A stretch of DNA of 64,000 bases from Candidatus Omnitrophota bacterium (GTDB taxonomy: Bacteria; Omnitrophota; Omnitrophia; Omnitrophales; Aquincolibacteriaceae), in contig JBDRCT010000037.1 of assembly GCA_043821445.1 (NCBI GenBank), forward strand, positions 49,703-113,702, read 5' to 3'. A model generated the notes under the pieces. The model was not told the origin of the DNA. It saw nothing but the letters and a program-made list of their open reading frames with translations, and searched no databases. Of this stretch, positions 31,319 through 52,868 are shown piece by piece. The position numbers and the translations under genes were made by a program. The stretch's first letter is position 1. The number at the start of each line of letters is the position of its first letter.

Positions 31319-32737
31319 TCAGATCCCGAAATAGATGAACGGCAAATTCGCGCTGCTGCCCGAGCTCAAAAAAAGCCAGAATGTAAGCCAGTAAAAAACC
31401 ACCTTAAAAACAATGTTCGTTTTTAAGAGGACGAATTCTTCTTTTCTGGCCGCCTGCCATACCTGCACCAACACAAGTATGAAGATGTACATGAATAAAA
31501 TGCGGAGATTCGTGATGAAAACGTCGAATTGAAAATCCGAAAAGATCTTTGCCACCTGCGTCACCGCGTGCCTGATACTTATCGGGTAAAAGAACAGCCA
31601 TCCCAGACACACGATGTGGAATGTCGCGAACCATGAAGCGAAGCCGGTCACGGCCCGCACCCATTTCGGGGCTGTGTCCGGTCCGGAAGACGCCCTGTTC
31701 GTTTTGTACCAATGAAAGATCGCTACCGCGATGCCGAAATACACCCCGCGGAAAATACTGCTGAGAGAAATGCTGTGCCATAAGCTAATGCATAAGAGCG
31801 TCACAAAAGAAGCGAGGTAAGCATTGCCTTTGTGATACGCCAGCACGGGGAAAAAAACGTAATCCCTGAACCAATATGTCATGGACATGTGCCACCGCCG
31901 CCAGAAATCCGAGATATTCCTTGCAAAGTAGGGCTGCCGGAAATTGATGGTCAGGTCAAACCCCATCAATTTCGCCGTTCCCCTGGCGATATCCGTGTAA
32001 CCGGAGATGTCGCAGTAGATTTGAAAAGCGAACGCATAAAGAGCCACCAGGACCCCCGCGCCGGAAGACCCGGCGGGATCCGAAAGGAGTTTTTCCGACA
32101 AAACAGCGCAATGGTTCGCGATAAAGATCTTCTGAAAAAGCCCCCAGTAGATCAGATAAACCCCTGTTCTGATATGGCTCCAGGAAATGATCCTTTGATT
32201 CTCGATCTGGTGGTAAAGATGCTTCGCTCTTTCGATGGGGCCGGCGATCAACTGCGGGAAAAAAGAAACATACAACAGATAGTCGGTAAAGTGCCTCACC
32301 GGTTTGACGCCTCCCCGGTAAACGTCGATCAAGTAGCCCATGGTTTGAAAGGTATAAAAAGAGATCCCTAAGGGAAGGATCACCTGAAGATGAAGGGTGT
32401 GCGCGCTCAGCCCGAAGAAAGCAAGGATGGGGTTCAGGCTTGAAATGAAAAAATTGAAAGATTTAAAAAACAGCAGGATGCTGAGATTGATCGACAAGCC
32501 TAATATCAAATACCGTTTTTTGATTCCCGGGCCGTGATTCCGGTCGATCGCCAGGCCGCAAAGGTAATCCGTCGTGCTGGAAATGAAGAGGAGTGAAAGA
32601 AAACGCCAATCCCACCACGCATAAAAGAAATAACTCGCTGCTAGAAGAAAGAGATTCTGTTGACGGTGTTTGAGGAGGACATAGATCAAAAATACGATCA
32701 AAAAGAATACCCAGAACTCGGGGGTGACGAATGACAT
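31319..32737 (-). CDS. MBOAT-family membrane O-acyltransferase (DltB/AlgI-like)
   Basis: Polytopic MBOAT protein with the conserved His region (WRRWHMSMTYWFRDYVF). Starts 1 nt after the ligase stop. Confidence 0.85.
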   Translation of the reverse strand: MSFVTPEFWVFFLIVFLIYVLLKHRQQNLFLLAASYFFYAWWDWRFLSLLFISSTTDYLCGLAIDRNHGPGIKKRYLILGLSINLSILLFFKSFNFFISSLNPILAFFGLSAHTLHLQVILPLGISFYTFQTMGYLIDVYRGGVKPVRHFTDYLLYVSFFPQLIAGPIERAKHLYHQIENQRIISWSHIRTGVYLIYWGLFQKIFIANHCAVLSEKLLSDPAGSSGAGVLVALYAFAFQIYCDISGYTDIARGTAKLMGFDLTINFRQPYFARNISDFWRRWHMSMTYWFRDYVFFPVLAYHKGNAYLASFVTLLCISLWHSISLSSIFRGVYFGIAVAIFHWYKTNRASSGPDTAPKWVRAVTGFASWFATFHIVCLGWLFFYPISIRHAVTQVAKIFSDFQFDVFITNLRILFMYIFILVLVQVWQAARKEEFVLLKTNIVFKVVFYWLTFWLFLSSGSSANLPFIYFGI

Positions 32738-34279
32738 CTATTTGCCCTTTTCCAAATATTGTTTTCTGAGGCTCTCGACCTTGACCTTCCCCGTGGCCCC
32801 CCGCGGAAAATCCTTCGGAAAGAACAGGTCTTGGGGCACCAGGAAAGCCGGGAGCTTTTTCATGGCATGCCGGTAATATTTCTCTTTGGATTTTTTCGGA
32901 CCGCGGACCTTCAAGGCGGTAATGATCGCTTCTCCGTAACGCTCATCCGGAATTCCAAAACTGATCGCCTCTTTGACATCGGGATGCTCTAAGAATGCCT
33001 GGTCGATCTCCAAAGGATAAACATTGATCCCGTTCTTGATAATGATCTGCTTGATCCTGTCCAAAAAGAAAATTTTTCCCTTGGGATCGATAGACCCCGT
33101 GTCCCCCGTTTTGAGAAATCCCCCTCCGGCCATGCAGGATCTTGTCTCTTTCTGATTCCTGAAATACCCCAGCATGTTATAGGGACTTTTCACGCGGAAT
33201 TCTCCGGTCTCGTTAGGCCCTAGCCTTCTTCCTTTCCCGTCAAAAACCCCTATCTCGGCTCCCAAAGCCTTTCCGACACAATGGGCCTTTTCCCCTTTGC
33301 CGGCGCTCTTAGGGACGCTGATCCAACTGGCTGTTTCGGTTAGGCCGTAGCAATTACGGATATAAATGCCCAGATGACCGGCATACCAATCATAAACAGC
33401 TTGCGGCAGTTGAGAGGAAGCCGAAAAAACGGTCCGCAGGCACTTCAAATCCTTTTTCCGGAAACCGCCGGTGTGTTCCTTCAAGAGTGCCAAAATGCCC
33501 GGCACCGCGGTAAAATAACGGATCCGGTATTTTTTCACCATGTTCCAGAATTGGACAGCCAGGAAAGGGTCGAATCTTGCGATATATATTCTGCAGCCGG
33601 ACAAGAACGGGACAAGCATTCCGGGGATCATGCCATGACCGGAAAAAAAAGGCAGGAAACTGAAAAAAGCGGTGCGGGGCCTGAAATTCAAAAGATCGAT
33701 AAGGTTCAAAATTTTCAGCCTTACGGATTCCATGGAAAGCATCACGCCTTTGGGACTTCCGATTGTCCCGGAGGTATACAGGATGAACTTAAGGCCTTTT
33801 TTAGGGATCTGACATTTGCGGACCGGGCGCGATGCTTCGTCCGGTTCCGGGGCAGACCGGAAGATTTCATCCGTAAGCACCGTCCGGCAAGGAAGCTCTT
33901 TGAGCCATGCGTTGCGACCCAAGATCGCTTGGGATGTGATGAGGAATTTTGACCGTGAATGGCGCGCAAGATAGGCCGTCTTTGTTTGATTCAGCCGGGG
34001 GTTCAGGGGAACGAGGACCAGGTCGACGTCCAGGAGGGCCAACAAGACCGCCATGGAATCGATGGAGTTGTCCAAAAAGAGGACTGCCTTATCCCCCGGA
34101 GAGTGCGGGATCGCGCTGAAATAGTGATAGGCCGAATGGACTTTCTTTTTAAAGCCGGCGAGATCGATCGAACTCTTGTCTTGAACGTCCGTGATGAGCT
34201 TCCCGTTTTGGGGAAAGCGATGGGAAAATTCTTCAAAGAACATTTTGGGCGCTACCATAGGCGCGGATGGCCCCGCCAT
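32738..34279 (-). CDS. ANL-superfamily adenylating enzyme (DltA / acyl-CoA ligase-like)
   Basis: YTSGTIGSPKGV (A3 P-loop), GYFRNQKET, TGDTG ... IKNGINVYPLEIDQAF core motifs. Confidence 0.85.
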   Translation of the reverse strand: MAGPSAPMVAPKMFFEEFSHRFPQNGKLITDVQDKSSIDLAGFKKKVHSAYHYFSAIPHSPGDKAVLFLDNSIDSMAVLLALLDVDLVLVPLNPRLNQTKTAYLARHSRSKFLITSQAILGRNAWLKELPCRTVLTDEIFRSAPEPDEASRPVRKCQIPKKGLKFILYTSGTIGSPKGVMLSMESVRLKILNLIDLLNFRPRTAFFSFLPFFSGHGMIPGMLVPFLSGCRIYIARFDPFLAVQFWNMVKKYRIRYFTAVPGILALLKEHTGGFRKKDLKCLRTVFSASSQLPQAVYDWYAGHLGIYIRNCYGLTETASWISVPKSAGKGEKAHCVGKALGAEIGVFDGKGRRLGPNETGEFRVKSPYNMLGYFRNQKETRSCMAGGGFLKTGDTGSIDPKGKIFFLDRIKQIIIKNGINVYPLEIDQAFLEHPDVKEAISFGIPDERYGEAIITALKVRGPKKSKEKYYRHAMKKLPAFLVPQDLFFPKDFPRGATGKVKVESLRKQYLEKGK

Positions 34280-35040
34280 TGCAGCTTCAGAAGAAGCAGG
34301 TCAAAAAACGAGAATACCGCCAATCCCATCATGGAAAAAACGGCAAGGCCCACATACACGTCCAGGATGCGGAACTGGTCCCAGGCATTCCACATGAAGA
34401 AACCTATTCCGTTCTTTGCGGCAAAGAATTCACCGGCCACGACCATCACCAAGCCGTAACCTATCCCTATCTTGCAGCCGTATAAAATATCGGGAAGAAT
34501 GCCTTTCAGGACGATCGAGTAAATTTTTTTAAAGAAAGGGATCCTGTAGATCTGGGCGATATAAGAATAAATTTCCGGAAACCTCCGGATCCCGTGGATC
34601 ACGCTGAGCAGGACAAGATAGAATATCCCGATGGCGATAATGGCTACTTTTGAAGCGTCCCCTATCCCCAGCAGGATCATCAAAAGCGGCAGGACCGACA
34701 ACTTAGGGATCGGATAGGTAATGGAGATAAGCGGATTAAAAAAACGGGCCGCCCTTTGATTCAGGCCCATGATCAATCCGAGTACGACGGCCAAGGGAAC
34801 GGCCAAGACCGTCCCGAGGGCCAATCGCTTCAGGCTGAATGAAAGGTCGCTTAAAAATTTCGGGTCATGCAACAAAAGCCCGGCCAGCCTCCGGAGAATG
34901 GCGACCGGAGCGGGAAAATAGCGGCTATCGATGATTTGGAAATACGCGAGCAATTCCCAAAGCACCAGAAGGACTACCGGCGCATTGAAAAGGGCGCCGG
35001 ATCGTTTGTTTAAAGGACCGAATGTTTGTTTTTTATCCAT
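34252..35040 (-). CDS. ABC transporter permease, NitT/TauT (SsuC-like) family
   Basis: Binding-protein-dependent transport inner-membrane signature (EFFAAKNGIGF). Overlaps both neighbouring genes. Confidence 0.8.
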   Translation of the reverse strand: MDKKQTFGPLNKRSGALFNAPVVLLVLWELLAYFQIIDSRYFPAPVAILRRLAGLLLHDPKFLSDLSFSLKRLALGTVLAVPLAVVLGLIMGLNQRAARFFNPLISITYPIPKLSVLPLLMILLGIGDASKVAIIAIGIFYLVLLSVIHGIRRFPEIYSYIAQIYRIPFFKKIYSIVLKGILPDILYGCKIGIGYGLVMVVAGEFFAAKNGIGFFMWNAWDQFRILDVYVGLAVFSMMGLAVFSFFDLLLLKLQWRGHPRLW

Positions 35041-35840
35041 TGTTGGAACTGCCGCTGGGTTCTTTCGACTTCTACCGTTAATAGTTCCGTGATCTCACGG
35101 ACCAGATCGAGATAACGCCTGTCCTCCCTGATCTGATTAACATCTCTGGGCCGCGGGATATCCACCAAAAACTCCTTCACATTTTTTCCGGGTCTTGAAG
35201 ACATCAGCACGACCCTGTCGGAAAGAGTGACCGCTTCATGGATATTATGCGTGATAAAAAAAACGGTCCTCAATTCGCCTGCCAATATCTCCAAGGTCAG
35301 CTGTTGGAGCTGGATCCTGCTCAGGAAATCCAGATGGACGAAAGGCTCGTCCATCAGGATGACTTTGGAACAAGAGGCCAAGGCGCGTGCAACATTCGCC
35401 CGCTGGATCATGCCTTCCGAAAGGTCGCCCGGAAAATAATCTTTAAAATCCGATAACCTGACCCGCTCCAGATAGCTCGATACTAAACGGTTTTTTTCCG
35501 GGTCCGGCAGAGGGCCATTGAGGCAGATCTTGATGTTGTCGAAAATGTTCAGCCAGGGGAAAAACGCGAAATCCTGAAAGACCACCGACGCGAATAATTC
35601 GGATCCATCGTGCGGCTGGCACTCCAGCTCTCCGGAGAAGTCCTTCGTAAGCCCGGCAAGGATCTTGAGCAGGGTGGTCTTCCCGCACCCGCTGGGGCCG
35701 ATCAAGGAAACGAACTCGCCCTGCCGCAGCGACAGATTGAAATGATCCAGGACCGCCAATTCTCCGAACGCCTTGCAAATGTTGGCGGCTTTTAAAACAA
35801 CGTCCCCGGGCTTGCGTGCGTGATTATTCGAATTTTCCAA
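35010..35840 (-). CDS. ABC transporter ATP-binding protein, NitT/TauT family
   Basis: GPSGCGKTT Walker A, LSEGMIQRANVARAL signature, ILMDEPFVHLD Walker B. Confidence 0.88.
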   Translation of the reverse strand: MENSNNHARKPGDVVLKAANICKAFGELAVLDHFNLSLRQGEFVSLIGPSGCGKTTLLKILAGLTKDFSGELECQPHDGSELFASVVFQDFAFFPWLNIFDNIKICLNGPLPDPEKNRLVSSYLERVRLSDFKDYFPGDLSEGMIQRANVARALASCSKVILMDEPFVHLDFLSRIQLQQLTLEILAGELRTVFFITHNIHEAVTLSDRVVLMSSRPGKNVKEFLVDIPRPRDVNQIREDRRYLDLVREITELLTVEVERTQRQFQQWIKNKHSVL

Positions 35841-36846
35841 GACGGGCCAACGCTTTTTCTACGAAGGTGTGGTCCACGGCTTTTTCGATGTCGCAGGGCA
35901 CATCAAGGTATCCATGCTCCCGGTACCATTGTGTATCTTCAGCCAGGGACTCTTTATTGAGGTAGCCGTCCGGATTGATCCCTGCGGGGATCATGTTACT
36001 CCAAATGTCATTCGCTTCGATCTTAACATGTTTCTTGAGCAGAAAAATGGCTTCCTCTTTATTTTTGCCTTTGATAAATGCGTCGTAATAGTCCCGGACC
36101 CCTTTCAGATAGGCGATCATGAATTTTTCCGCCAGATCAGGCCGTCCGGTGATGAATGGGAAGGAATACAGGATGGCCGCGCTCTGCTGTCCGGGATAGA
36201 CTTCATTGACCCCCGCAACCTTGACCGCGATGCCTTTTGACTCGGCCTCGGTAAGATACGGCTCAAGCTGGATGGTCGCATCGAGGGCCTTGTTCCCCAA
36301 AGCAACGTTCATGGCCGCATAATCCATCTTTTCAAAAACTACATCGTTCACGCTCAATCCCGCGGTCTTCAAGAATTTATCGGCCGCGATTTGCTGGGAA
36401 ACTCCGAACGCGGTCACCGCCATCTTAAAGCCTTTCAGATCGCCGAATCTCTGGTATCGCTTGCTGTCGACATGGTCTTTCCTGACCAGCAATCCTATGT
36501 AATCACATGCTTTGCTGACGCTCCCTTTATCGGCCACCAGTTTTATGTTGAGCCCGCTGTTGATGGCATTCCATAACCCCGCGCTGATATTCCCCGCGCC
36601 GACGTCCAGACTGCCGTTCCCCAGTAAGGCTGTCATGGGCGCTCCTGAGCCCTTAAAATAGGTCAAGTCGGCTTCGATCCCCTCTTTCTTAAAATATCCC
36701 TTTTCGTAAGCAAGAAAAATGCCCGAGGAACTGACCACGGGAGAAACCCCGATCTTGACCTTAGAATCTTTGCCGTCACTGGCGCTCGCTACCGACACAG
36801 AGAGGCCTATGCAAGCGACCATCCCTACGATCCATGTTTTTCTCAT
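35824..36846 (-). CDS. ABC transporter periplasmic substrate-binding protein (NMT1/SsuA-like) with signal peptide
   Basis: Signal peptide MRKTWIVGMVACIGLSVSVASA; NitT/TauT SBP-like fold. Confidence 0.75.
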   Translation of the reverse strand: MRKTWIVGMVACIGLSVSVASASDGKDSKVKIGVSPVVSSSGIFLAYEKGYFKKEGIEADLTYFKGSGAPMTALLGNGSLDVGAGNISAGLWNAINSGLNIKLVADKGSVSKACDYIGLLVRKDHVDSKRYQRFGDLKGFKMAVTAFGVSQQIAADKFLKTAGLSVNDVVFEKMDYAAMNVALGNKALDATIQLEPYLTEAESKGIAVKVAGVNEVYPGQQSAAILYSFPFITGRPDLAEKFMIAYLKGVRDYYDAFIKGKNKEEAIFLLKKHVKIEANDIWSNMIPAGINPDGYLNKESLAEDTQWYREHGYLDVPCDIEKAVDHTFVEKALARLGKFE

Positions 36847-37112
36847 TTTCGCTCTCCTTCTTTTTGTTTGTTGGATATAAAGGCCGTTAAATTTTCGATC
36901 GTTTCCAGGTTTCCGGGGTGAATATCGCCCTTCTTGATCTTGATATGAAACCGGGCCTCGAGCGCGTGGACAAAAGGAAAGATGCCGAAAGAATCGACGA
37001 TCCCCCGTAAAAAAAGCGACTCACCGGCGGAAAAATCCCTTGGCACTTTAATGCCGTGATTATTCTTTGCCAGGATGTCCCTGACCGCGTTCTCGATTTC
37101 TTCGCGTTGCAT
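36843..37112 (-). CDS. Small carrier protein, DltC/ACP-like (89 aa)
   Basis: GIVDSFGIFPFVHALE resembles the DltC phosphopantetheine attachment site (GIIDSFQTV). Size and helix pattern fit a carrier protein. Confidence 0.6.
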   Translation of the reverse strand: MQREEIENAVRDILAKNNHGIKVPRDFSAGESLFLRGIVDSFGIFPFVHALEARFHIKIKKGDIHPGNLETIENLTAFISNKQKEGERK

Positions 37113-37160: not shown

Positions 37161-38918
37161 TCAATTTTCCGTTAATTGGCGGAAGATCTCCTGGGCTATA
37201 ATTTTGTGCCCATATCGGTTAGGATGAGAATGAGCTTCCGCGAGGAGAAAATTTTTATTTTTGTTAAATATACCTTCCAGGTTCAAATAGTAGATTTCCG
37301 GATGTTCCCGGCGCAAATTCGCCAGAAAAATTTCTGTTCGCTCATCATTCAAGCCCGTTGAAAAGTCAAGCTGCGGGATGAAAACCACCTTGATCCCCTT
37401 TTCTTTACATAAGGTTATCACTTCTTTAAAAAGAAAGTCCGGGTTCTCAATGGACGTCGCTCGGTCGCCGGAGTGCCATGCACCCAGGAACCTTTTTCTG
37501 ATGTTTTCCACAGCCATGAATAAATAACTTTTACATAAAAAGTCGTACAGGTACACGATCTCTTTGATCGGCTCCTTGAATTTAAGGGCGGCATACAAGA
37601 GCCGGCCGTTCTTGATCCAGTCGGAATTCTTTTCCATCACCCTCTTGGCTCTCTGGTATAAAGCATAATCCTTCTCAAGCCGTCCTTTGTTATTCTCCTC
37701 TTTCGGATAGGCTAGCCTTCCATAAAATAATATGAAGTCAGGGTTCATTTTGTTCAATACTTCTTTCAAATATATGTTCATCTCTACGCTGTAAAAGTTA
37801 TTCATCCCGGGAAGGACTAGGGGAATGACCATGTTTTTCTTTTGATTCCACGCATTCAATTTCTTTTCCAAAAGGGCCGGGAAAACTTGGGCCAGGGAAA
37901 GAGCTCCGATCTCAAGGGGGGAAGATCCCGCGCAGAGGATCCGCGTGGCGTGTTCGGAATTCGCTATCAGGTATTTGTTCGGCCGGTCACCAAAGTAAGA
38001 CTTGATCGTGAGCTCCTTCGGATCGTTGAAGGCCCCAAAAAAATTAGTGGATATCTCGAATCGCCATTTGGGTTTCAGTTGACCGATGTCCAGACCCGGA
38101 TCATGGGGGTAAGCCACTCTTAGAAATGCTTCCAGGAAAAACAGGGGGAAGACAAAAAAGAGTAACTTTCTGAAGAAGCGCTTTTCAGAACATCCCAGGG
38201 CAAGAAAGATCAGCACTCCGAGGGAAAGGAACATTTGCGAGATGAATTTGTAAAAATAGAGCAGGGCAAAATCAGCGTTGAATAAAATTCTCCCCGCAGG
38301 ACCCAAAATTTCCAGCCTGTTAAGCGTCACTTCTTTTTGCGACGGGAGGAACAAGCCGAAGTTATAATTTACGGGCTCAGGACCCAGCGGGATCTTTTCC
38401 ATGAATTTTCCGTTCATATAAACAAGGACCGTTTTTTCTGTCAGATTGCATTTCAAACGCGATTGGAAACCTTCCGATCGATTAAACCCTGGTATCATGC
38501 ACAAAGGTGAGAGTGGATATTTTATCGTTGAGACATATTCTTCCTGACCCTGCCCATCCTTACAATAAACCCCCGAGGGGCTGCTATATCCGGATAGAAT
38601 GAAGCTGCATCGATCACAAAATCGTATTTCGACCCTTCGGCAGGCCAACCGTGTCAGGTTGACTTCGATGTCGTACCGGGTCGGGTCACGGGGTTGACCC
38701 GCGTCCGTCGCCTTAGGATGTTCATATCCCCATACCTCATTGAGTTCATAGAGCGACCGCCACTTTTTTCCCAGGGCTGGGATTTCTTTTTCGCAGAATA
38801 GGATCGAAGAAGCTGCGACGATCATAAGGACGAGCGAATAGATTGCGGTGCGTGATTTGTTTTTATGTAATGCTTCTGTAAGGGATGCGACTGAAGATCT
38901 TTTCATAATGTTGATCAA
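37161..38918 (-). CDS. Membrane protein, paralogue A: TM + Cys-rich ecto-domain + 2 TM + DltD/AlgJ-like SGNH domain
   Basis: TM at aa ~22-42 and 2 TM at aa ~220-270. C-terminal ILCAGSSP (SGNH block I-like) and HSHPNRYGHKIIAQEI (block V-like). 585 aa. Confidence 0.7.
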   Translation of the reverse strand: MINIMKRSSVASLTEALHKNKSRTAIYSLVLMIVAASSILFCEKEIPALGKKWRSLYELNEVWGYEHPKATDAGQPRDPTRYDIEVNLTRLACRRVEIRFCDRCSFILSGYSSPSGVYCKDGQGQEEYVSTIKYPLSPLCMIPGFNRSEGFQSRLKCNLTEKTVLVYMNGKFMEKIPLGPEPVNYNFGLFLPSQKEVTLNRLEILGPAGRILFNADFALLYFYKFISQMFLSLGVLIFLALGCSEKRFFRKLLFFVFPLFFLEAFLRVAYPHDPGLDIGQLKPKWRFEISTNFFGAFNDPKELTIKSYFGDRPNKYLIANSEHATRILCAGSSPLEIGALSLAQVFPALLEKKLNAWNQKKNMVIPLVLPGMNNFYSVEMNIYLKEVLNKMNPDFILFYGRLAYPKEENNKGRLEKDYALYQRAKRVMEKNSDWIKNGRLLYAALKFKEPIKEIVYLYDFLCKSYLFMAVENIRKRFLGAWHSGDRATSIENPDFLFKEVITLCKEKGIKVVFIPQLDFSTGLNDERTEIFLANLRREHPEIYYLNLEGIFNKNKNFLLAEAHSHPNRYGHKIIAQEIFRQLTEN

Positions 38919-39023
38919 GCGGTATCAGGCCCCTGGTCCAACAGGTTCATTATAAAAAACGTCCGTTCGAGAACGTCAGTGAACTTACCGATCATTTGTG
39001 GATATCGAGCGATCCTTTTTCTG

Positions 39024-40784
39024 TCAATTTTCCGTTAATTGGCGGAAGATCTCCTGGGCCATCACCTCATTTCCATAGTTATTAGCATGAGCCCTATCTC
39101 TCGCGATGAGAAAATTTTCATACCGTTTAAATATACCTTCCAGGCTTAGATAATAGATCTCCGGATATTTTTGGCGGAAATTCACCAAAAAATTTTCTGT
39201 GAGCTTGTGATTCGAACGCGTTAAAAAGTTAAGCTGCGGAATGAAAACCACCTTGATCCCCTTTTCTTTACATAAGGTTATCAAGGCTTCAAAAAGAAAG
39301 TTCGGGTTCTCAATGGACGTCACTCGATCGCCGGAGTGCCATGCACCCAGGAACCTTTTTCTGATGTTTTCCACGGCCATGAATAAATAACTTTTACATA
39401 GAAAGTCGTATAGATACACGATCTCTTTGACCGGCTCCTTGAATTCAAGGGCGGCATATAAGAGCCGGTCGTTCTTGATCCAGCCGGAATTCTTTTCCAT
39501 CACCCTCTTGGCTCTCTGGTATAAAGCATAATCCTCCTCGAACTGTGCTTTATCATACTCCTCATAAAAGGGGCTCAGCGTGCCATAAAATAACATGAGG
39601 TCAGGATTGATTTTTTTCAATACTTCTCTCAAATAGACATTCATTTCTACATTCCTAAAGTTATCGCTCCAGGGAATGATGATGGGGATCACGATGTTTT
39701 TCTTTTGATTCCACGCATTCAATTTCTTTTCCAAAAGGGCCGGGAAATCTTGGTCAAACAAAGGGGGTCCGGCCATAAGAGGGGAAGAGCCTGCGCAGAG
39801 GATCCGCGTGGTGTGTTCGGGACTCGCTATCAGGTATTTGTTCGGCCGGTCACCAAAGTAAGACCTGATCGTAAGCTCCTTCGGATCGTTGAAGGCCCCA
39901 AAGAAATTAGTGGATATTTCGAATCGCCATTTGGGTTTCAGCCGATCGATATCCAGACCCGGGTCATGGGGGTAAGTCACTCTTAGAAATATTTCTATGA
40001 ATACCAGGGGAAAAACAAAAAGCAGGACCTTTCTGAAAAAGCGTCTCTCAGAACATGCCAGGGCAAGAAAGATCAGGACGCCGAGGGAAAGGAACACTTG
40101 CGAGATAAATTTATAAAAATAGAGCAGGGGAAAGTTGACATGGAATAAAACTCTTCCTTTTGGGTCGGAAATTTTTAGCTTATCAAGTATCACTTCTTCT
40201 CCTGCCGGGGGGATAGCCAAACCGAAACTATCATGGAGGGACTCAGGACCTAGCGGGATCTTTTCCGCGAATTTTCCGTTCACGTAAACAAGAACCGTTT
40301 TTTCTATCAGATCGCATTTCAAACGCAATTGGAAACCTTCCGATCGTTTAAACCCTGGTATCACGCACAAAGGTGAGAGCGGATACTTTATCGTTGAGAC
40401 ATATCCTTCCCGGCCCTGTTCATCCTTACAATAAACTCCCGAGGAGCTGCTATATTTGGACAGAATGAAGCTGCATCGATCACAAAATCGTATTTCGGCC
40501 CTACGGCAAGCAGACCGTGTCAGGCTGACTTCGATGTCGTACCGGGTCAAGTTACGAAGCTGACCTTCTTCCATCGCCTTAGGGTCCTCATATCCCCACA
40601 CTTCGTTTAATGCATAGAGTGATCGCCACTTTTTCCCCTGGGCTGCTATCTCTTTTTCACAGAATAGGATCGAAGAAGCTGCGACGATCATAAGGACGAG
40701 CGAAAATACGGCGATGGGTAATCTGCTTTTGCTTAATATTTCCGTGAGGGATGCGACTGAAAATCTTTTCATAACGTTGATCAA
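39024..40784 (-). CDS. Membrane protein, paralogue B of the tandem SGNH-like array
   Basis: Same architecture as A. The C-terminal ~100 aa and the spacer are nearly identical to the other copies. Confidence 0.7.
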   Translation of the reverse strand: MINVMKRFSVASLTEILSKSRLPIAVFSLVLMIVAASSILFCEKEIAAQGKKWRSLYALNEVWGYEDPKAMEEGQLRNLTRYDIEVSLTRSACRRAEIRFCDRCSFILSKYSSSSGVYCKDEQGREGYVSTIKYPLSPLCVIPGFKRSEGFQLRLKCDLIEKTVLVYVNGKFAEKIPLGPESLHDSFGLAIPPAGEEVILDKLKISDPKGRVLFHVNFPLLYFYKFISQVFLSLGVLIFLALACSERRFFRKVLLFVFPLVFIEIFLRVTYPHDPGLDIDRLKPKWRFEISTNFFGAFNDPKELTIRSYFGDRPNKYLIASPEHTTRILCAGSSPLMAGPPLFDQDFPALLEKKLNAWNQKKNIVIPIIIPWSDNFRNVEMNVYLREVLKKINPDLMLFYGTLSPFYEEYDKAQFEEDYALYQRAKRVMEKNSGWIKNDRLLYAALEFKEPVKEIVYLYDFLCKSYLFMAVENIRKRFLGAWHSGDRVTSIENPNFLFEALITLCKEKGIKVVFIPQLNFLTRSNHKLTENFLVNFRQKYPEIYYLSLEGIFKRYENFLIARDRAHANNYGNEVMAQEIFRQLTEN

Positions 40785-40889
40785 GCGGTATCAGGCCCCT
40801 GGGCTAACAGGTTTATTATAAAAAACGTCCGTTCGAGAACGTCAGTGAACTTACCGATCATTTGTGGATATCGAGCGATCCTTTTTCTG

Positions 40890-42647
40890 TCAATTTTCCG
40901 TTAATTGGCGGAAGATCTCCTGGGCTATCACTTCATGCCCATAATTGTTAGTATGAGAGTTATCTATCGCGATGAGAAAATTTTCATACCGTTCAAATAT
41001 ACCTTCCAGGCTTAGATAATAGATCTCCGGATATTTTTGGCGGAAATTCACCAAAAAATTTTCTGTGAGCTTGTGATTCGAACGCGTTAAAAAGTCGAGC
41101 TGCGGGATGAAAACCACCTTGATCCCCTTTTCTTTACATAAGGTTATCAATGCTTCAAAAAGAAAGTCCGGGTTCTCAATGGACGTCGCTCGGTCGCCGG
41201 AGTGCCATGCGCCCAGGAACCTTTTTCTGATGTTTTCCACGGCCATGAATAAATAACTTTTACATAAAAAGTCGTATAGATACACGATCTCTTTGACCGG
41301 CTCCTTGAATTCAAGGGCGGCATACAAGAGCCGGTCGTTCTTGATCCAGCCGGAATTCTTTTCCATCACCCTCTTGGCTCTCTGGTATAAAGCATAATCC
41401 TCCTCGAACTGTGCCTTGCTGCGCTCGTCTCTAAAGGGAACCAGCATGCCATAGAATAATATGAGATCAGGATTCATTTTGTTTAATACTTCTTTCAAAT
41501 ATATGTTCATCCCTAAGCTGTAAAAACTAGCCATCCCGGGAAGGACTAGGGGAATGACCATGTTTTTCTTTTGATTCCAGGCATTCAATTTCCTTTCCAA
41601 AAGGGCCGGGAAAGCTTGGGCCAGGGAAAGGGCTCCGCCTTCCAGGGGGGAAGCTCCTGCGCAGACGATCCGCATAGCGTGGTCGGGGTTCGCTACCCGG
41701 TATGTGCGCAATTCGCCAGAGCCAGACTCGAGCGTGAGCTCCTTCGGATCGTTGAAGGCCCCAAAAAAATTAGTGGATATCTCGAATCGCCATTTGGGTT
41801 TCAGTTGACCGATGTCCAGACCCGGATCATGCGGGTAAGCCACTCTTAAAAATGCTTCCAGGAAAAACAGGGGGAAGACAAAAAAGAGTAACTTTCTGAA
41901 AAAGCGCTTTTCAGAACATGCCAGGGCAAGAAAGATCAGCACTCCGAGGGAAAGAAACCCTTGCGAGATAAGCCTGAAAAAAATGAGCGGGACGAAATTA
42001 ATGCTGGATAAAACCTTCCCCTTTGGGTCGGAAATTTCCAGCCTGTTAAGTATCACTTCTTTTCCCACCGGGTGGATCACTAAACCAAAACTATCATGGA
42101 CGGGCTCAGGACCCAGCGGGATCTTTTCCATGAATTTTCCGTTCATGTAAACAAGGACTGTTTTTTCTACCAAATCGCACTTCAAAAGCAGCTTGACGCC
42201 TCCTAACCGTTCATGCCACGCCATCACGCGCGTCGATGGGTACGGATACTCTGCCGTCGAGACATATGTTTCCCGGCCTTGTTCATCCTTATAATAAACT
42301 CCTGAGAGTTTGCTATCTCCGGACAGAACAAAACTGTATTTATCGCAAAATCGTATGGCGATCCTATGGTAGGCAAACCGTGTCAGGCTGACTTTGATGT
42401 CATACCGGGTCAAGTTACGAAGCTGTCCCTCTTCCATCGCCTTAGGGTCCTCATATCCCCACACCTCTTTCAGCTCATAGAGCGATCGCCACTTTTTTTC
42501 CAAGACTGGGATCTTTTGATCGCAGAATAGGATCGAAGAAGCTGCAATGATCATAAAGAGCAATGAAAATACGGCGATGAGTAGTCTGCTCTTGCTTAAT
42601 ATTTCCGTGAGGGATGCGACTGAAGATCTTTTCATAATGTTGATCAA
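40890..42647 (-). CDS. Membrane protein, paralogue C of the tandem SGNH-like array
   Basis: Same architecture; most divergent ecto-domain (Cys pattern partly lost). Confidence 0.7.
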   Translation of the reverse strand: MINIMKRSSVASLTEILSKSRLLIAVFSLLFMIIAASSILFCDQKIPVLEKKWRSLYELKEVWGYEDPKAMEEGQLRNLTRYDIKVSLTRFAYHRIAIRFCDKYSFVLSGDSKLSGVYYKDEQGRETYVSTAEYPYPSTRVMAWHERLGGVKLLLKCDLVEKTVLVYMNGKFMEKIPLGPEPVHDSFGLVIHPVGKEVILNRLEISDPKGKVLSSINFVPLIFFRLISQGFLSLGVLIFLALACSEKRFFRKLLFFVFPLFFLEAFLRVAYPHDPGLDIGQLKPKWRFEISTNFFGAFNDPKELTLESGSGELRTYRVANPDHAMRIVCAGASPLEGGALSLAQAFPALLERKLNAWNQKKNMVIPLVLPGMASFYSLGMNIYLKEVLNKMNPDLILFYGMLVPFRDERSKAQFEEDYALYQRAKRVMEKNSGWIKNDRLLYAALEFKEPVKEIVYLYDFLCKSYLFMAVENIRKRFLGAWHSGDRATSIENPDFLFEALITLCKEKGIKVVFIPQLDFLTRSNHKLTENFLVNFRQKYPEIYYLSLEGIFERYENFLIAIDNSHTNNYGHEVIAQEIFRQLTEN

Positions 42648-42752
42648 GCGGTATCAGGCCCCTGGGCTAACAGGTTTATTATAAAAAACGTCTGTTCAAG
42701 AATGTCGGTGAACTTATCGATTACTTATTGATATCGAGCAATCCTTTTTGTA

Positions 42753-44499
42753 TCAATTTTCCGTTAATTGGCGGAAAATCTCTTCAGCTATGACCTCGTG
42801 CCCATAGCTGCTCAGGTGAAACCGGTCTTTCATGATGGTAAAATGTTCATTCCTTTCAAATATGCTTTCCAGGCTTAAATAATAAGTCTCCGGATGTTTC
42901 CGGCGCAAATTCGCCAACGGATCCCCCGTTTGCCTGTCATTCGAGCGCGTTAAAAAGTCGAGCTGCGGAATGAAAACCACCTTGATCCCCTTTTCTTTAC
43001 ATAAGGTTATCAAGGCTTCAAAAAGAAAGTCCGGGTTCTCAATGGACGTCGCTCGGTCGCCGGAGTACCATGCGCCCAGGAACCTTTTCCTGATGTTTTC
43101 CACGGCCATGAATAAATAACTTTTACATAGAAAGTCGTATAGATACACGATCTCTTTGACCGGCTCCTTGAATTCAAGAGCGGCATAGAGTAACCGGTCG
43201 TTCTTGATCCAGCCGGAGTTCTTTTCCATCACCTTCTTTGCTCTCTGGTACAGGACATAATCCTTCTCGAACTGTGCTTCGTCATACCCCTTACTAGCAG
43301 ACAGTAACTTGCCATAAAATAATATGAGGTCAGGATTCATTTTATTTAATACTTCTTTCAAATAAATATTCATTTCTACATTGTTAAGGCGTTCAAACCA
43401 GGGAACGATTATGGGGATCACTACATTTTTCTTTTCACTTCGTGCATTTAATTTCCTTTCCAAAATGGCCGGAAAAGCTTGATCGGGGAAAGGGGCTCCC
43501 GCAAAAAGAGGGGAAGAGCCTGCGCAGAGAATCCGCATCGCGTGCTCGGGGTTCGCTACCTGGTAGGTGCGTGGAGGGCACCCGTAAGAATGAATCGTGA
43601 GTTCCCTCGGATCGTTGAAGGCCCCAAAGAAATTAGTGGATGTCTCGAATCGCCATTTGGGTTTCAGTTGACCGATGTCCAGACCCGGGTCATGGGGGTA
43701 AGTCACTCTTAGAAATATTTCTATGAATACCAGGGGGAAAGCAAAAAGTAGCACCTTTCTGAAGAGGCGCTTTTCAGAACATCCCAGGGCAAAAAGGATC
43801 AGCACTCCCAGGGAAAGAAACACTTGCGAGATGAGTTTAAAAAAAAAGGAGCGGAAAAAAATTAACGCTGTATAACACTCTCCCCTTTGGGCCGGAAATT
43901 TCCAGTTTGTCAAGCATTGCTTCTCTCCTCCACGGAGGGATGGCCAAGCCAAAGTTATTATTGACGGGCTCGGGACCCAGGAGGATCTTTTCCATGAATT
44001 CCCCGTTCATGTAAACGAGGACCGTTTTTGCCACTAGATCACATTTAAAAAGAAAATGGTAGTTTTTGGGTTGTTGATGCCCTGTCATCGCGCGCATAGG
44101 TGCGCACGGATACTCTACCTTCGAAACATATTCTTCCCGACCCTGCCCATCCTTATAATAAACTCCCGAGGGTTTGTTATTTTCCGTCATAATAAAGCTG
44201 TATTTATCACAAAACAGTATTTCCACCCTGCGTTGGTCACTCCGTGTCAGACTGACTTTGATGTCATACCGGGTTGGGTCACGGGCCGGACCCGCGTCCG
44301 TCGCCTTAGGGTCCTCATATCCCCACACCTCATTTAACTGACAGAGCGATCGCCACTTTTTTTCCAGCTTTCTTATCTCTCCTTCGCAAAATAGGATTGA
44401 AGAAGCTGCGACGATCATAAGGACGAGCGAAAATACGGCGATAGGTGATCTGTTTTTGCGTAATATTTCCGTGAGGGATGCAGCTGAGAATTTTTTCAT
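42753..44499 (-). pseudogene. Paralogue D of the array, split by a +1 frameshift near A9/A7 homopolymer tracts (ORFs 43837-44742 and 42753-43952)
   Basis: The N-terminal and C-terminal halves lie in different frames. Alignment with copy A shows one extra base in gcggaaaaaaattaac (43850-43865). The true start is MKKFSAASLTE at 44499. Confidence 0.65.
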
Positions 44500-44582
44500 G
44501 ATGTCAATGAAGCGGCAACAGGCGATGGACCCCATTGATTGATTATAAAAATGCTCGTTCGAGAGAGAAGGATCGGAGGCTT

Positions 44583-45716
44583 TTAGACCGCGGGCAAGGT
44601 GAAAAAGAAAGTCGAGCCAACCCCGGATTTGCCCGCCGTACTGTCTTGAACGTCTACCGCTGAGCCGGACGGATCCGTTGTGCGGTGGGTCGAAGATTCT
44701 ACCCAAATGCGCCCGCCGCAACGCTCCACGATCTTCTGGCACGTCGCCAAACCGATCCCCGACCCCGGATATTTTTGCCGCGTCGCCAATTTTTCAAACA
44801 TGAGAAAAATGCGTTCCCGGAGCGCTTCGGGGACCCCGATCCCGTTGTCTTGGACAGAAAAAAGCCATTCTTTTTCTTTGCGGACGGCCGAAATATGGAC
44901 GCGCGGTTCTTTTTCGCAGTATTTGATCGCGTTGCCGATCAGGTTTTGAAAAAGCAATCCCGCGAGGCCCGGATCGATCGGTAAGGCCGGTAAGGGATCG
45001 CAGATCACTTCCGCTTTTTTTTGGAGTATCAAAAAATGGAAGTCCTTGATCACTTCCTTGACGACCTTTTCCAATTCCAAGGGGGACTGCGGGGCCTTGG
45101 ATTTTTGAACATTGGCGTAATTCAAAAGCGCTTTGATAAAAAGGATCATCCGGTTCACGGTGGTGATAATACGTTCCATGAAATCTTTCGCCGTCTCATC
45201 TCCTGAATCCTGATACTTGTCTTTCAAGAGCTCCGCAAAACCCAAAATAGTCGCCAAAGGGGATTGAAGATCGTGGGCCGCCTTCGATGCGAACAATTCG
45301 AGCTCGAGATTGGAACGGGCTAGTTCGTCCGATTTTATTTTAAGCTGTTCTTCCTTGCTCCGGATGATGCCGGTCATCATGCAGACGACTGTAAATGTTA
45401 GGACACGCACGAGGCCATTCACGAGCAAAAAAGGCGAATCCTTTTGGGCGATAGACCACAGGATCGATGACAGAACCACCATAAGCCAACCCGGCCGGTC
45501 CCCCCAATACCAAGTCACGGCCATGATGGAAGGGATATAAAAAATATAAAAGGCGACTTCGTCGCCGGTCATTACATCCAGATTAAAAATAAGAAGCGTG
45601 GCGCAAAGGATAAGGAGGCCCTCAAGCATTTCCAGGGCCTTGCTTTTTTTAGGCGGTCTCTTTTGAGAAGTGATCTTCATCAAGGAATAGTATAAACTTG
45701 CATCCCGAACTGTCAA
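44583..45716 (-). CDS. Intramembrane-sensing histidine kinase (multi-TM N-terminus + HisKA + HATPase_c)
   Basis: AHDLQSPLATILGFAELL H-box; GSGIGLATCQKIVERCGGRIWVES. No cognate receiver gene adjacent. Confidence 0.85.
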   Translation of the reverse strand: MTVRDASLYYSLMKITSQKRPPKKSKALEMLEGLLILCATLLIFNLDVMTGDEVAFYIFYIPSIMAVTWYWGDRPGWLMVVLSSILWSIAQKDSPFLLVNGLVRVLTFTVVCMMTGIIRSKEEQLKIKSDELARSNLELELFASKAAHDLQSPLATILGFAELLKDKYQDSGDETAKDFMERIITTVNRMILFIKALLNYANVQKSKAPQSPLELEKVVKEVIKDFHFLILQKKAEVICDPLPALPIDPGLAGLLFQNLIGNAIKYCEKEPRVHISAVRKEKEWLFSVQDNGIGVPEALRERIFLMFEKLATRQKYPGSGIGLATCQKIVERCGGRIWVESSTHRTTDPSGSAVDVQDSTAGKSGVGSTFFFTLPAV

Positions 45717-51573: not shown

Positions 51574-52692
51574 TCATCCGCCATGGACGTGCTCTCCGCC
51601 TCCGGCACCTTCCAGAGCTGACCTGAGCCGGCTCTCCGAATCGATCAGGAAATTGCCGCTTGTCACGACTTGCTCGCCTTCCAGAAGCCCGCTCTTGATC
51701 TCGTAAAAACCGTCCGCTTTCGCGCCAAGGACCACTTCATGCGGATCGAAAATATTTTTCTCCCGGACCACGAAAACGATGTTCTTTTCTCCGGTCATGA
51801 ACACGGCCTCTTCCGGCACCGCGAGTTGTTCCCCAAGATCGGTCTTGAGCACCGCGTTCACATACATCTCGGGCTTCAATATGCCGTCCGGATTTTCAAG
51901 CTGCGCGCGGACACGGATGGAACGCGTCACCGGGTCCACCACGGAATCCAGGGCCCGCACAACCCCCCGGTACTTCTTGTCCGAGATCGCCGGCACATCG
52001 ACCTCCACCGCGTCCCCCATGTGCACAAACGGCGTTTCATACTCGTAGATGGGCGCGTAAAGCCAGACCTTACCGCCCGGATCGGAATAAAGAAGCGAAC
52101 GGTCCGGCTTCCCGGCCTCTTCGATCTCCTGAACGATCGCGTCATTTAAACCCAAAAGCCGCAGTTTGATCTTGGAGGAATCCACGAGCTTCGCGGCCTG
52201 CTCCCGGATCTCCGGGTCCGCGGTCTCAGCTTTCTTTAAAGCTTGAGCGGCCTGAAGGTATTCTTCCTCGGCTTGGTAAAGTTCGGGGTCATACGCGATC
52301 CGGCCGCTGGCCCGGATCGTTTTCGTCAACGCCATTTTCCGGACCGGCGCGGTCCTCACCCCGATCGCCTGTTGCTTTTCGGCGCCCAGTTGCAGGGACG
52401 TATAGCCCTGCGGGAATGCGTCCTTCACGATCACGCCGAGGTCTTCCCCGCAATGCGGGCATTTCCCAAGCCGGGCGAATTCCGGCGTCATGGCGATCAT
52501 GCAAGTTCCCATTTTGCATTTATGAAGCAGGCAGATCTCGCCCGGTTTCATGGCCACGAGCTGCGCGACCGTAAAAACCTTCGGTTGGTCCACAGTCGAC
52601 AGTCCATGGTCCATAGTTTTTTTGTCCGTGGTCTGCGGTCTGTGGTCTGATTCGTTTCGCGCTTCACAAGCGACATGTTGCAGATAGGACAA
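51574..52692 (-). CDS. cusB: CusB-like RND periplasmic adaptor (membrane fusion protein), main ORF
   Basis: MFP beta-barrel and lipoyl-like regions. Has an internal Cys/His metal site (CLLHKCKMGTCMIAM ... CPHCGEDL). Lacks an N-terminal signal or anchor in this frame. Confidence 0.8.
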   Translation of the reverse strand: MSYLQHVACEARNESDHRPQTTDKKTMDHGLSTVDQPKVFTVAQLVAMKPGEICLLHKCKMGTCMIAMTPEFARLGKCPHCGEDLGVIVKDAFPQGYTSLQLGAEKQQAIGVRTAPVRKMALTKTIRASGRIAYDPELYQAEEEYLQAAQALKKAETADPEIREQAAKLVDSSKIKLRLLGLNDAIVQEIEEAGKPDRSLLYSDPGGKVWLYAPIYEYETPFVHMGDAVEVDVPAISDKKYRGVVRALDSVVDPVTRSIRVRAQLENPDGILKPEMYVNAVLKTDLGEQLAVPEEAVFMTGEKNIVFVVREKNIFDPHEVVLGAKADGFYEIKSGLLEGEQVVTSGNFLIDSESRLRSALEGAGGGEHVHGG

Positions 52693-52868
52693 GTCCCCGG
52701 CCGGTCGGAGGTGTAATTCGGATGCATGGGACAGTAATAAACCGATTTTTCGGCATGTTTTGCCGTGTGAGTTGAAAGATGCCCCAAGGACCGGAACGCC
52801 ATGGCGCCCGCTACGATCACGATCGTTAAAAGAATTCCGAGGGATAAAAAACGATTCCTTTGGATCAT
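52548..52868 (-). CDS. Membrane-anchored heavy-metal-binding domain (HMBD) segment, probably the authentic N-terminus of cusB in another frame
   Basis: Signal-anchor LSLGILLTIVIVAGAMAF then YYCPMHP ... GTCPICNMSL (CusB-type HMBD). Overlaps the cusB ORF by 145 bp across a cagaccacagaccgcagaccac short tandem repeat. Confidence 0.55.
   Translation of the reverse strand: MIQRNRFLSLGILLTIVIVAGAMAFRSLGHLSTHTAKHAEKSVYYCPMHPNYTSDRPGTCPICNMSLVKRETNQTTDRRPRTKKLWTMDCRLWTNRRFLRSRSSWP

Follow-up and report, generated by a model that had tools for sequence, protein, structure and literature searches.

In a tandem array of four paralogous genes from an uncultured member of the Omnitrophota, the copy that adjoins a histidine kinase gene (c4) is split by one extra base at a run of nine Ts (T9). 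Our explanation, which we hold with moderate confidence, is a slipped-strand +1 frameshift of very recent origin in a redundant paralog: we find only one lesion, constraint on the protein has been kept, there are three intact paralogs, and the site appears to have been T-rich ancestrally. An earlier note on this DNA had read the break as a pseudogene, a sequencing error, or phase variation at an A tract, with a leaning towards the last. The single net +1 base and the plausible link of the array to the envelope both stand, while the evolved switch is not supported.

Results

The array and the break in c4

We refer to the whole 64-kb stretch of DNA that we analysed as the window. It contains four tandem paralogs on the minus strand (37161-44499), each of about 581 amino acids, with conserved spacers of 105 nt between them. 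The features of the array, in the coordinates of the window, are:

37161-38906, minus strand: c1, intact, 581 aa (P0003, ABH891_07825), directly upstream of a carrier-protein gene
39024-40772, minus strand: c2, intact, 582 aa (P0001, ABH891_07830)
40890-42635, minus strand: c3, intact, 581 aa (P0002, ABH891_07835)
42753-44499, minus strand: c4, the kinase-adjoining copy, read as two overlapping ORFs in different frames
42753-43838, minus strand: C-terminal part of c4, in the +1 frame, with TM2, TM3, and the predicted SGNH-fold domain; GSSP and D..H are retained
43837-43839, minus strand: premature TAA stop, made of the ninth T plus AA, which ends the N-terminal fragment
43839-43847, minus strand: T9 run on the coding strand (A9 on the plus strand), net +1 base; T8 would be in frame as CTT TTT TTT AAA (L F F K)
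43855-43861, minus strand: T7 run (A7 on the plus strand), eight bases from the A9, encoding Phe-Phe in frame
43840-44499, minus strand: N-terminal part of c4, 220 codons, with TM1 and a galectin/ConA-like beta-sandwich
44583-45680, minus strand: histidine kinase, directly upstream of c4 and syntenic in relatives

The earlier note had placed the two halves of c4 in different frames, with one net extra base in the A9/A7 region, and we confirm both points. The ORFs at 42753-43952 and 43837-44742 overlap by 116 nt and are in different frames, and the four-way DNA alignment has a lone one-base gap, at column 760, opposite CCGCTCC-TTTTTTTTT-AAACTC in c4. From the conserved AAT (Asn) to ATCTCG (Ile-Ser), c4 has 28 nt and c1-c3 have 27 nt. 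The A9 at 43839-43847 is the longest homopolymer in the window. If one T is deleted, c4 has an uninterrupted frame of 582 codons (581 aa), with no further stop or indel; with T9, there is a stop at codon 221. Downstream of T9, the +1 frame is open for 362 codons, up to the normal stop of the family. The extra base must lie within C-T9 and not in the T7 run (43855-43861), because the CCG CTC (Pro-Leu) that follows T7 has not left the upstream frame and is identical to c3. On mechanistic grounds, a change from T8 to T9 is more likely than the insertion of a C ahead of an in-frame T9 (CTC-C).

The N-terminal half had been given as 43837-44742. It does occupy a separate frame, but its true start is the ATG at 44499 (MKKFSAASLTEIL), which matches the MKR(S/F)SVASLTE start of the other copies; the GTG at 44742 gives a spurious upstream extension that overlaps the kinase gene.

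The intact copies c1-c3 are ABH891_07825, ABH891_07830, and ABH891_07835 on a 119-kb contig of a Candidatus Omnitrophota metagenome bin. The public record does not flag the frameshift and lists the halves of c4 as two unrelated hypothetical proteins. The 5' half is ABH891_07845 (232 aa, 43837-44535, from an ATG at 44535), and of the 3' half only 42753-43706 is called (ABH891_07840, 317 aa). Neither protein is among the homology matches with the repaired c4 protein, even though both are in the collection that was searched. The annotated 317-aa version has no TM or signal sequence, and the SGNH part of c4 has no convincing start of its own. The break lies where the lectin-like domain gives way to TM2.

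The copies also differ in how they resemble each other. Across c1-c3 (37161-42647), c1 and c2 are the closest pair at alignment columns 341-580, c1 and c3 at columns 821-980, and c2 and c3 at columns 1621-1780, while a stretch of about 240 nt (columns 1381-1620) is 88-99% identical across all four copies. This mosaic of identity blocks indicates gene conversion among c1-c3, with c4 little involved. The spacers c2/c1 and c3/c2 contain the same hairpin, GACGTTCTCGAACGGACGTT, followed by TTTTTATAAT (38958-38977 and 40824-40843, minus strand). In a scan for promoters and terminators, counts were at the level of shuffled sequence, and only this conserved hairpin plus T-run in two inter-copy spacers deserves mention. 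A weak terminator together with a -10 box is one possible reading of it, in which case the copies would perhaps be separate transcription units.

Protein family and conserved cassette

The family is small (18 proteins in the database), and neither Pfam nor NCBIfam has a model for it. The AlphaFold model (pLDDT 67) predicts TM1, a beta-sandwich, two TM helices with a short basic loop, and a C-terminal alpha/beta domain. The best PDB matches of the beta-sandwich are galectin CRDs, pentraxins, and sialidase lectin domains. When the C-terminal domain was modelled alone (pLDDT 60, i.e., of modest quality), its top Foldseek matches were all SGNH enzymes (TesA, acetyl xylan esterases, and PatB of N. 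gonorrhoeae), with TM scores of up to 0.67 on the target; the model thus points to an SGNH fold. Profile matches with Lipase_GDSL and Lipase_GDSL_2 were found in 6 and 3 of 17 members, respectively, with a best E value of 3.7e-4, below the Pfam cut-offs. In a weak profile alignment (E 0.5-0.9), RIicvGsSP pairs with RIVVLGDSL and drsHPteYGH with DRVHPSVAGH, which would put the invariant GSSP opposite the GDS(L) nucleophile block and D-x-x-H-P-x-x-Y-G-H opposite block V.

In nine related loci, the family gene is single-copy and heads a conserved cassette in the order lectin-SGNH gene, carrier of 88/89 aa, SsuA-type binding protein, ABC ATPase, permease, AMP-binding ligase, and MBOAT. The cassette is seen, for example, in the loci L001, L009, and L012-L014, with the histidine kinase upstream in closer relatives. 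The same cassette genes come after c1 in the window:

36843-37112, minus strand: acyl carrier protein, 89 aa, with a GIVDSFG motif; candidate for a DltC-like role
34252-36846, minus strand: SsuA/NMT1-type substrate-binding protein, ABC ATPase, and permease of the conserved cassette
32738-34279, minus strand: AMP-binding acyl ligase; candidate for a DltA-like role
31319-32737, minus strand: MBOAT, whose only NCBIfam match is DltB, below cut-off

There is thus a candidate for each of the four roles of a Dlt-type pathway (DltA, DltC, DltB, and DltD-like), but the Dlt cut-offs are missed: the MBOAT scores 156 bits against the DltB cut-off of 375 bits, generic ACP models score better than DltC for the carrier, and the best match of the ligase is to fatty-acyl ligases. 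MBOAT-SGNH pairs are standard machinery for acylating envelope polymers (PMC12148441). Because an SGNH and a lectin-like domain are encoded next to a carrier protein, an acyl-AMP ligase, and an MBOAT, the suggestion in the earlier note of a surface-modification array is a fair one, and the proteins of the array plausibly serve in acyl transfer to envelope polymers. As in PatA/PatB and DltB/DltD, a predicted extracytoplasmic SGNH-fold domain is encoded with an MBOAT, a small carrier, and an acyl-AMP ligase. Unlike those systems, the SGNH protein has an N-terminal galectin-like domain, three TM helices, and a large helical insert, and it falls outside the Pfam and NCBIfam families; the ligase is closer to fatty-acyl ligases than to DltA, and the cassette includes an SsuA-type ABC importer.

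The array is not the only expansion at this locus. A 1,123-aa homolog (L004:9206-12577) has three tandem N-terminal modules (TM, lectin-like domain, TM-TM) and one SGNH domain, which appears to be a different mode of expansion.

Constraint on c4 and the age of the break

The earlier note had allowed for a plain pseudogene with additional lesions; we looked for such lesions in c4 and found none. Downstream of the break, dN/dS is 0.30-0.35 between c4 and c1-c3 and 0.29 between c4 and its ortholog in L001, no higher than among the intact copies (0.40-0.48). c4 has reached a synonymous divergence of about 0.47 from its paralogs with only one disabling change. An alignment of 19 family members has 41 invariant columns, including G327, S329, P330, and H561, and c4 keeps the invariant residues upstream and downstream of the break, the putative catalytic Ser and Asp/His among them; the alignment was built with repaired c4 first, so invariant columns are kept in c4 by definition. 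On these grounds (one lesion, low dN/dS downstream, invariant residues kept), we rule out an old, decayed pseudogene. If about 4-5% of random substitutions create stops and indels are taken to be about 15% as frequent as substitutions, then, as a rough estimate, neutral decay cannot have gone much beyond about 1% divergence, since 1.7 kb contain no further lesion. Since there is no second lesion, the break in c4 must be very recent, harmless, or not real. As a point against a young frameshift, a low dN/dS would be expected of a functional phase-variable or recoded gene as well.

Is the break an assembly error?

If the true sequence is T8, then c4 is intact and the extra T came from base calling or from the consensus. 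We consider this unlikely, but several observations fit it: the window has a single 9-mer, its longest homopolymer, and this is where the lesion is; the normal constraint and lack of a second lesion are what an intact gene would have; the source is a metagenome bin; and another gene, 8 kb away, is also frameshifted. The position in the longest homopolymer and the second frameshifted gene also count against a young frameshift. Against an artefact, 40 of the 42 intragenic A/T runs of at least 7 bases are in frame, including all five 8-mers (31146, 33643, 35256, 45015, and 47755), so homopolymer miscalling is not pervasive in this assembly. Only c4 and the second frameshifted gene are demonstrably split. 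A scan in which one base was added or removed at 494 runs of at least 5 bases gave mostly false positives at gene junctions. A gene map based on codon usage has three same-strand overlaps of more than 100 nt; those at NuoB/NuoC and at CMD are not frameshifts and trace to spurious 5' ORF extensions, as judged from Pfam or synteny, and the third is at 1896-3044/2909-3787.

The second split gene encodes a CusB-like RND adaptor (51574-52868, minus strand). The HMBD lies in one frame, from 52868 down to about 52550, and the HlyD barrel-sandwich domains lie in the -1 frame, at 51574-52692. The L001 ortholog is a single protein of 431 aa, and the public record has only a truncated protein of 346 aa. 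The frame changes within a non-conserved linker (52590-52660) that contains an A7 run (the heptamer A_AAA_AAA, 52617-52623) and two 12-nt repeats, CAGACCAC[A/G]GAC, 14 nt apart, each encoding Q-T-T-D in a different frame. This arrangement suggests the loss of one base between the repeats rather than at A7, which is not a typical homopolymer error and so argues further against an artefact at c4. Of about 51 genes, two are broken, and either real lesions or sporadic indel errors could account for this; the adaptor could equally reflect either.

Is the T tract special?

Under another explanation, the T tract is an evolved contingency locus, a slipped-strand ON/OFF switch in an envelope-modifying array, and the bin was caught in the OFF state. 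This, too, seems to us unlikely, though parts of the case are sound. An intragenic mononucleotide run is present at which a change of one base switches the reading frame of c4 (T8 would be ON, T9 OFF), and c4 is otherwise sound. The gene plausibly modifies the envelope, given its predicted SGNH and lectin-like domains beside an MBOAT (PMC12148441), and the lectin-like domain is where these mosaic paralogs differ most. In other bacteria, short homopolymers can serve as reversible switches (PMC10334774, PMC9941203).

The tract itself argues otherwise. In 12 other homologous copies or modules, the runs at this site are T5-T7 and a Tyr codon interrupts them (F-Y-K), and a change from Tyr to Phe in c4 merges the T runs; a T-rich patch of Phe and Tyr codons thus appears to be ancestral at the break site. 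Neither the T9 tract nor the frame split is found in any homolog compared, so the tract is conserved in 0 of those 12. With the codon usage of this genome, the probability of CTT TTT TTT given Leu-Phe-Phe is about 0.05, i.e., T8 is a roughly 5% outcome of codon choice. The numbers of A/T runs of lengths 4 to 9 in the window fall smoothly (541, 274, 101, 44, 8, and 1): there is no excess at length 9 and no second run of at least 9 in the 64 kb, and G or C runs of at least 7 are absent from the window. The tract is therefore no longer and no more conserved than composition and codon usage predict. Also, the site is mid-gene, and A/T runs of 8-9 would count among the shorter of the known switches. 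We see no sign of a selected tract, and T9 is probably not special; the evidence for an evolved phase switch there appears weak.

The earlier note had proposed a comparison with other isolates or metagenome bins. When we sought a closer ortholog of c4 among 5.8 billion proteins, the best matches were its own paralogs, and a c4-specific scan of JGI metagenomes gave zero matches. Scans with the family profile found 2 distant loci in GTDB genomes and 3 in JGI metagenomes. The homologs that could be compared lack the tract.

Contingency loci such as the homopolymer-tract variants of M. tuberculosis (PMC10334774) share with c4 an intragenic run at which one base toggles the full-length ORF, and c4 belongs to a paralog family that likely acts on the envelope. 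Unlike them, the c4 tract is short (8/9 A:T), is not conserved, and is explicable by Phe codons; furthermore, c4 comes from an uncultured environmental bacterium and is known from one assembled sequence.

A parallel in another Omnitrophota genome

In L008 (GCA_041643255.1, contig JBGGGX010007323.1, Omnitrophota), a kinase is followed by a family copy (885-2704) that is split at a G8 run (2133-2140), where G9 would be in frame, and then by a second copy that starts at 2856, so that this is an array of two or more copies. The kinase-proximal copy is therefore frameshifted at a homopolymer in both multi-copy arrays that we found, and in 0 of 9 single-copy loci. With two arrays only, this is an anecdote. 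It fits decay that is permitted by redundancy, and it also fits a switch or a sequencing error that depends on the tract. As a point for a switch, the G8/G9 frameshift in L008 is independent of T9, and our window has no comparable run of G or C; as a point for an artefact, it is another break at a homopolymer. It also counts against a young frameshift in c4, as it hints at something more systematic than chance decay. For example, T9 and the G8 of L008 might be slippage sites that set the ratio of lectin-only to full-length lectin-SGNH acyltransferase, or ON/OFF switches. We regard this as an improbable idea.

Could c4 be decoded as it stands?

The earlier note did not raise the routes by which c4 might be rescued without mutation, i.e., transcriptional slippage or a +1 ribosomal slip. 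In the strongest form of this idea, recoding is programmed: standard decoding gives a 220-aa lectin-only protein, and slippage on T9 or a +1 shift gives the full-length lectin-SGNH protein. Slippage on 9A/9T is documented (Baranov 2005, PMC1088944), and sites are recognised by a run of about 9 or more A or T with an open alternative frame (PMC1088944). The T9 of c4 has exactly this length and an open frame downstream, the UUU just before its 0-frame stop is able to re-pair in +1, the break coincides with a domain boundary, and L004 uses the N-terminal module alone as a repeat unit. There are precedents for two-length products: the A9 of T. thermophilus dnaX, Shigella mxiE, and C. rodentium tssM1 (PMC1088944, PMC4256274). 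Like the dnaX A9, mxiE, and the tssM1 A11, c4 has a run of nine A:T with a stop at once after it, and the downstream frame is the rest of a bona fide protein. But in those genes the run is conserved among orthologs and both products have been shown (PMC1088944, PMC4256274), whereas the run in c4 occurs in one paralog of one bin and is known from sequence alone.

Moreover, any +1 insertion in a T run gives this geometry automatically. The prfB-type site for a +1 programmed ribosomal frameshift is CUU UGA C, and c4 resembles it in that a slippery codon with the potential for +1 re-pairing (UUU to UUU) immediately precedes the 0-frame stop (UUU UAA A). Unlike prfB, c4 has no Shine-Dalgarno-like stimulator about 3 nt upstream, where the sequence is UUCCGCUCC and the nearest GGGGAG is about 37 nt away, and it has neither conservation nor autoregulatory logic. 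There is no stable RNA structure at the break site (z = +1.4), there is no Rfam match anywhere in the window, and the frameshift and the tract occur in no homolog. We consider programmed recoding very improbable.

Discussion

Our preferred explanation, a young slippage frameshift, would run as follows. The family gene is single-copy in relatives, and c4 is the kinase-proximal member of what appears to be a lineage-specific tandem expansion to four copies. Replication slippage on T8 most likely produced T9, so that translation would now stop at a UAA after 220 codons, and standard decoding would give a TM-anchored, lectin-like fragment of 220 aa. With three intact paralogs after c4, there is redundancy for the loss of one copy. 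The result would be a loss-of-function allele that all, or most, of the sampled population carries, and that is too young to have acquired a second lesion or to show relaxed constraint.

With its nine Ts, the allele is probably leaky: this is the length at which slippage by RNA polymerase becomes significant in many bacteria (PMC1088944), and slippage is known to restore the split genes mxiE and tssM1 (PMC1088944; PMC4256274). From this published work, RNA polymerase slippage on 9T, or +1 re-pairing of tRNA-Phe on UUU_UAA, might bypass the stop, and it seems plausible that the T9 allele yields some full-length c4 protein. Also, the same slippage that would have created T9 could revert the allele.

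If c4 carries merely a young frameshift or an assembly error, then the main use of this result is to correct the annotation of c4 and of the RND adaptor. If T9 and the G8 of L008 are slippage sites, then uncultured Omnitrophota would gain stochastic variation in which envelope glycan gets acylated. If the length of the tract varies, this would add to a small number of hints that simple-sequence phase variation occurs in this candidate phylum, whose members are nanobacteria, mostly uncultured and in part host-dependent, and it would mark an unstudied family of lectin-SGNH proteins as a variable envelope determinant. And the frameshift aside, the seven-gene cassette is worth attention as an uncharacterised, carrier-dependent MBOAT-SGNH acylation system.
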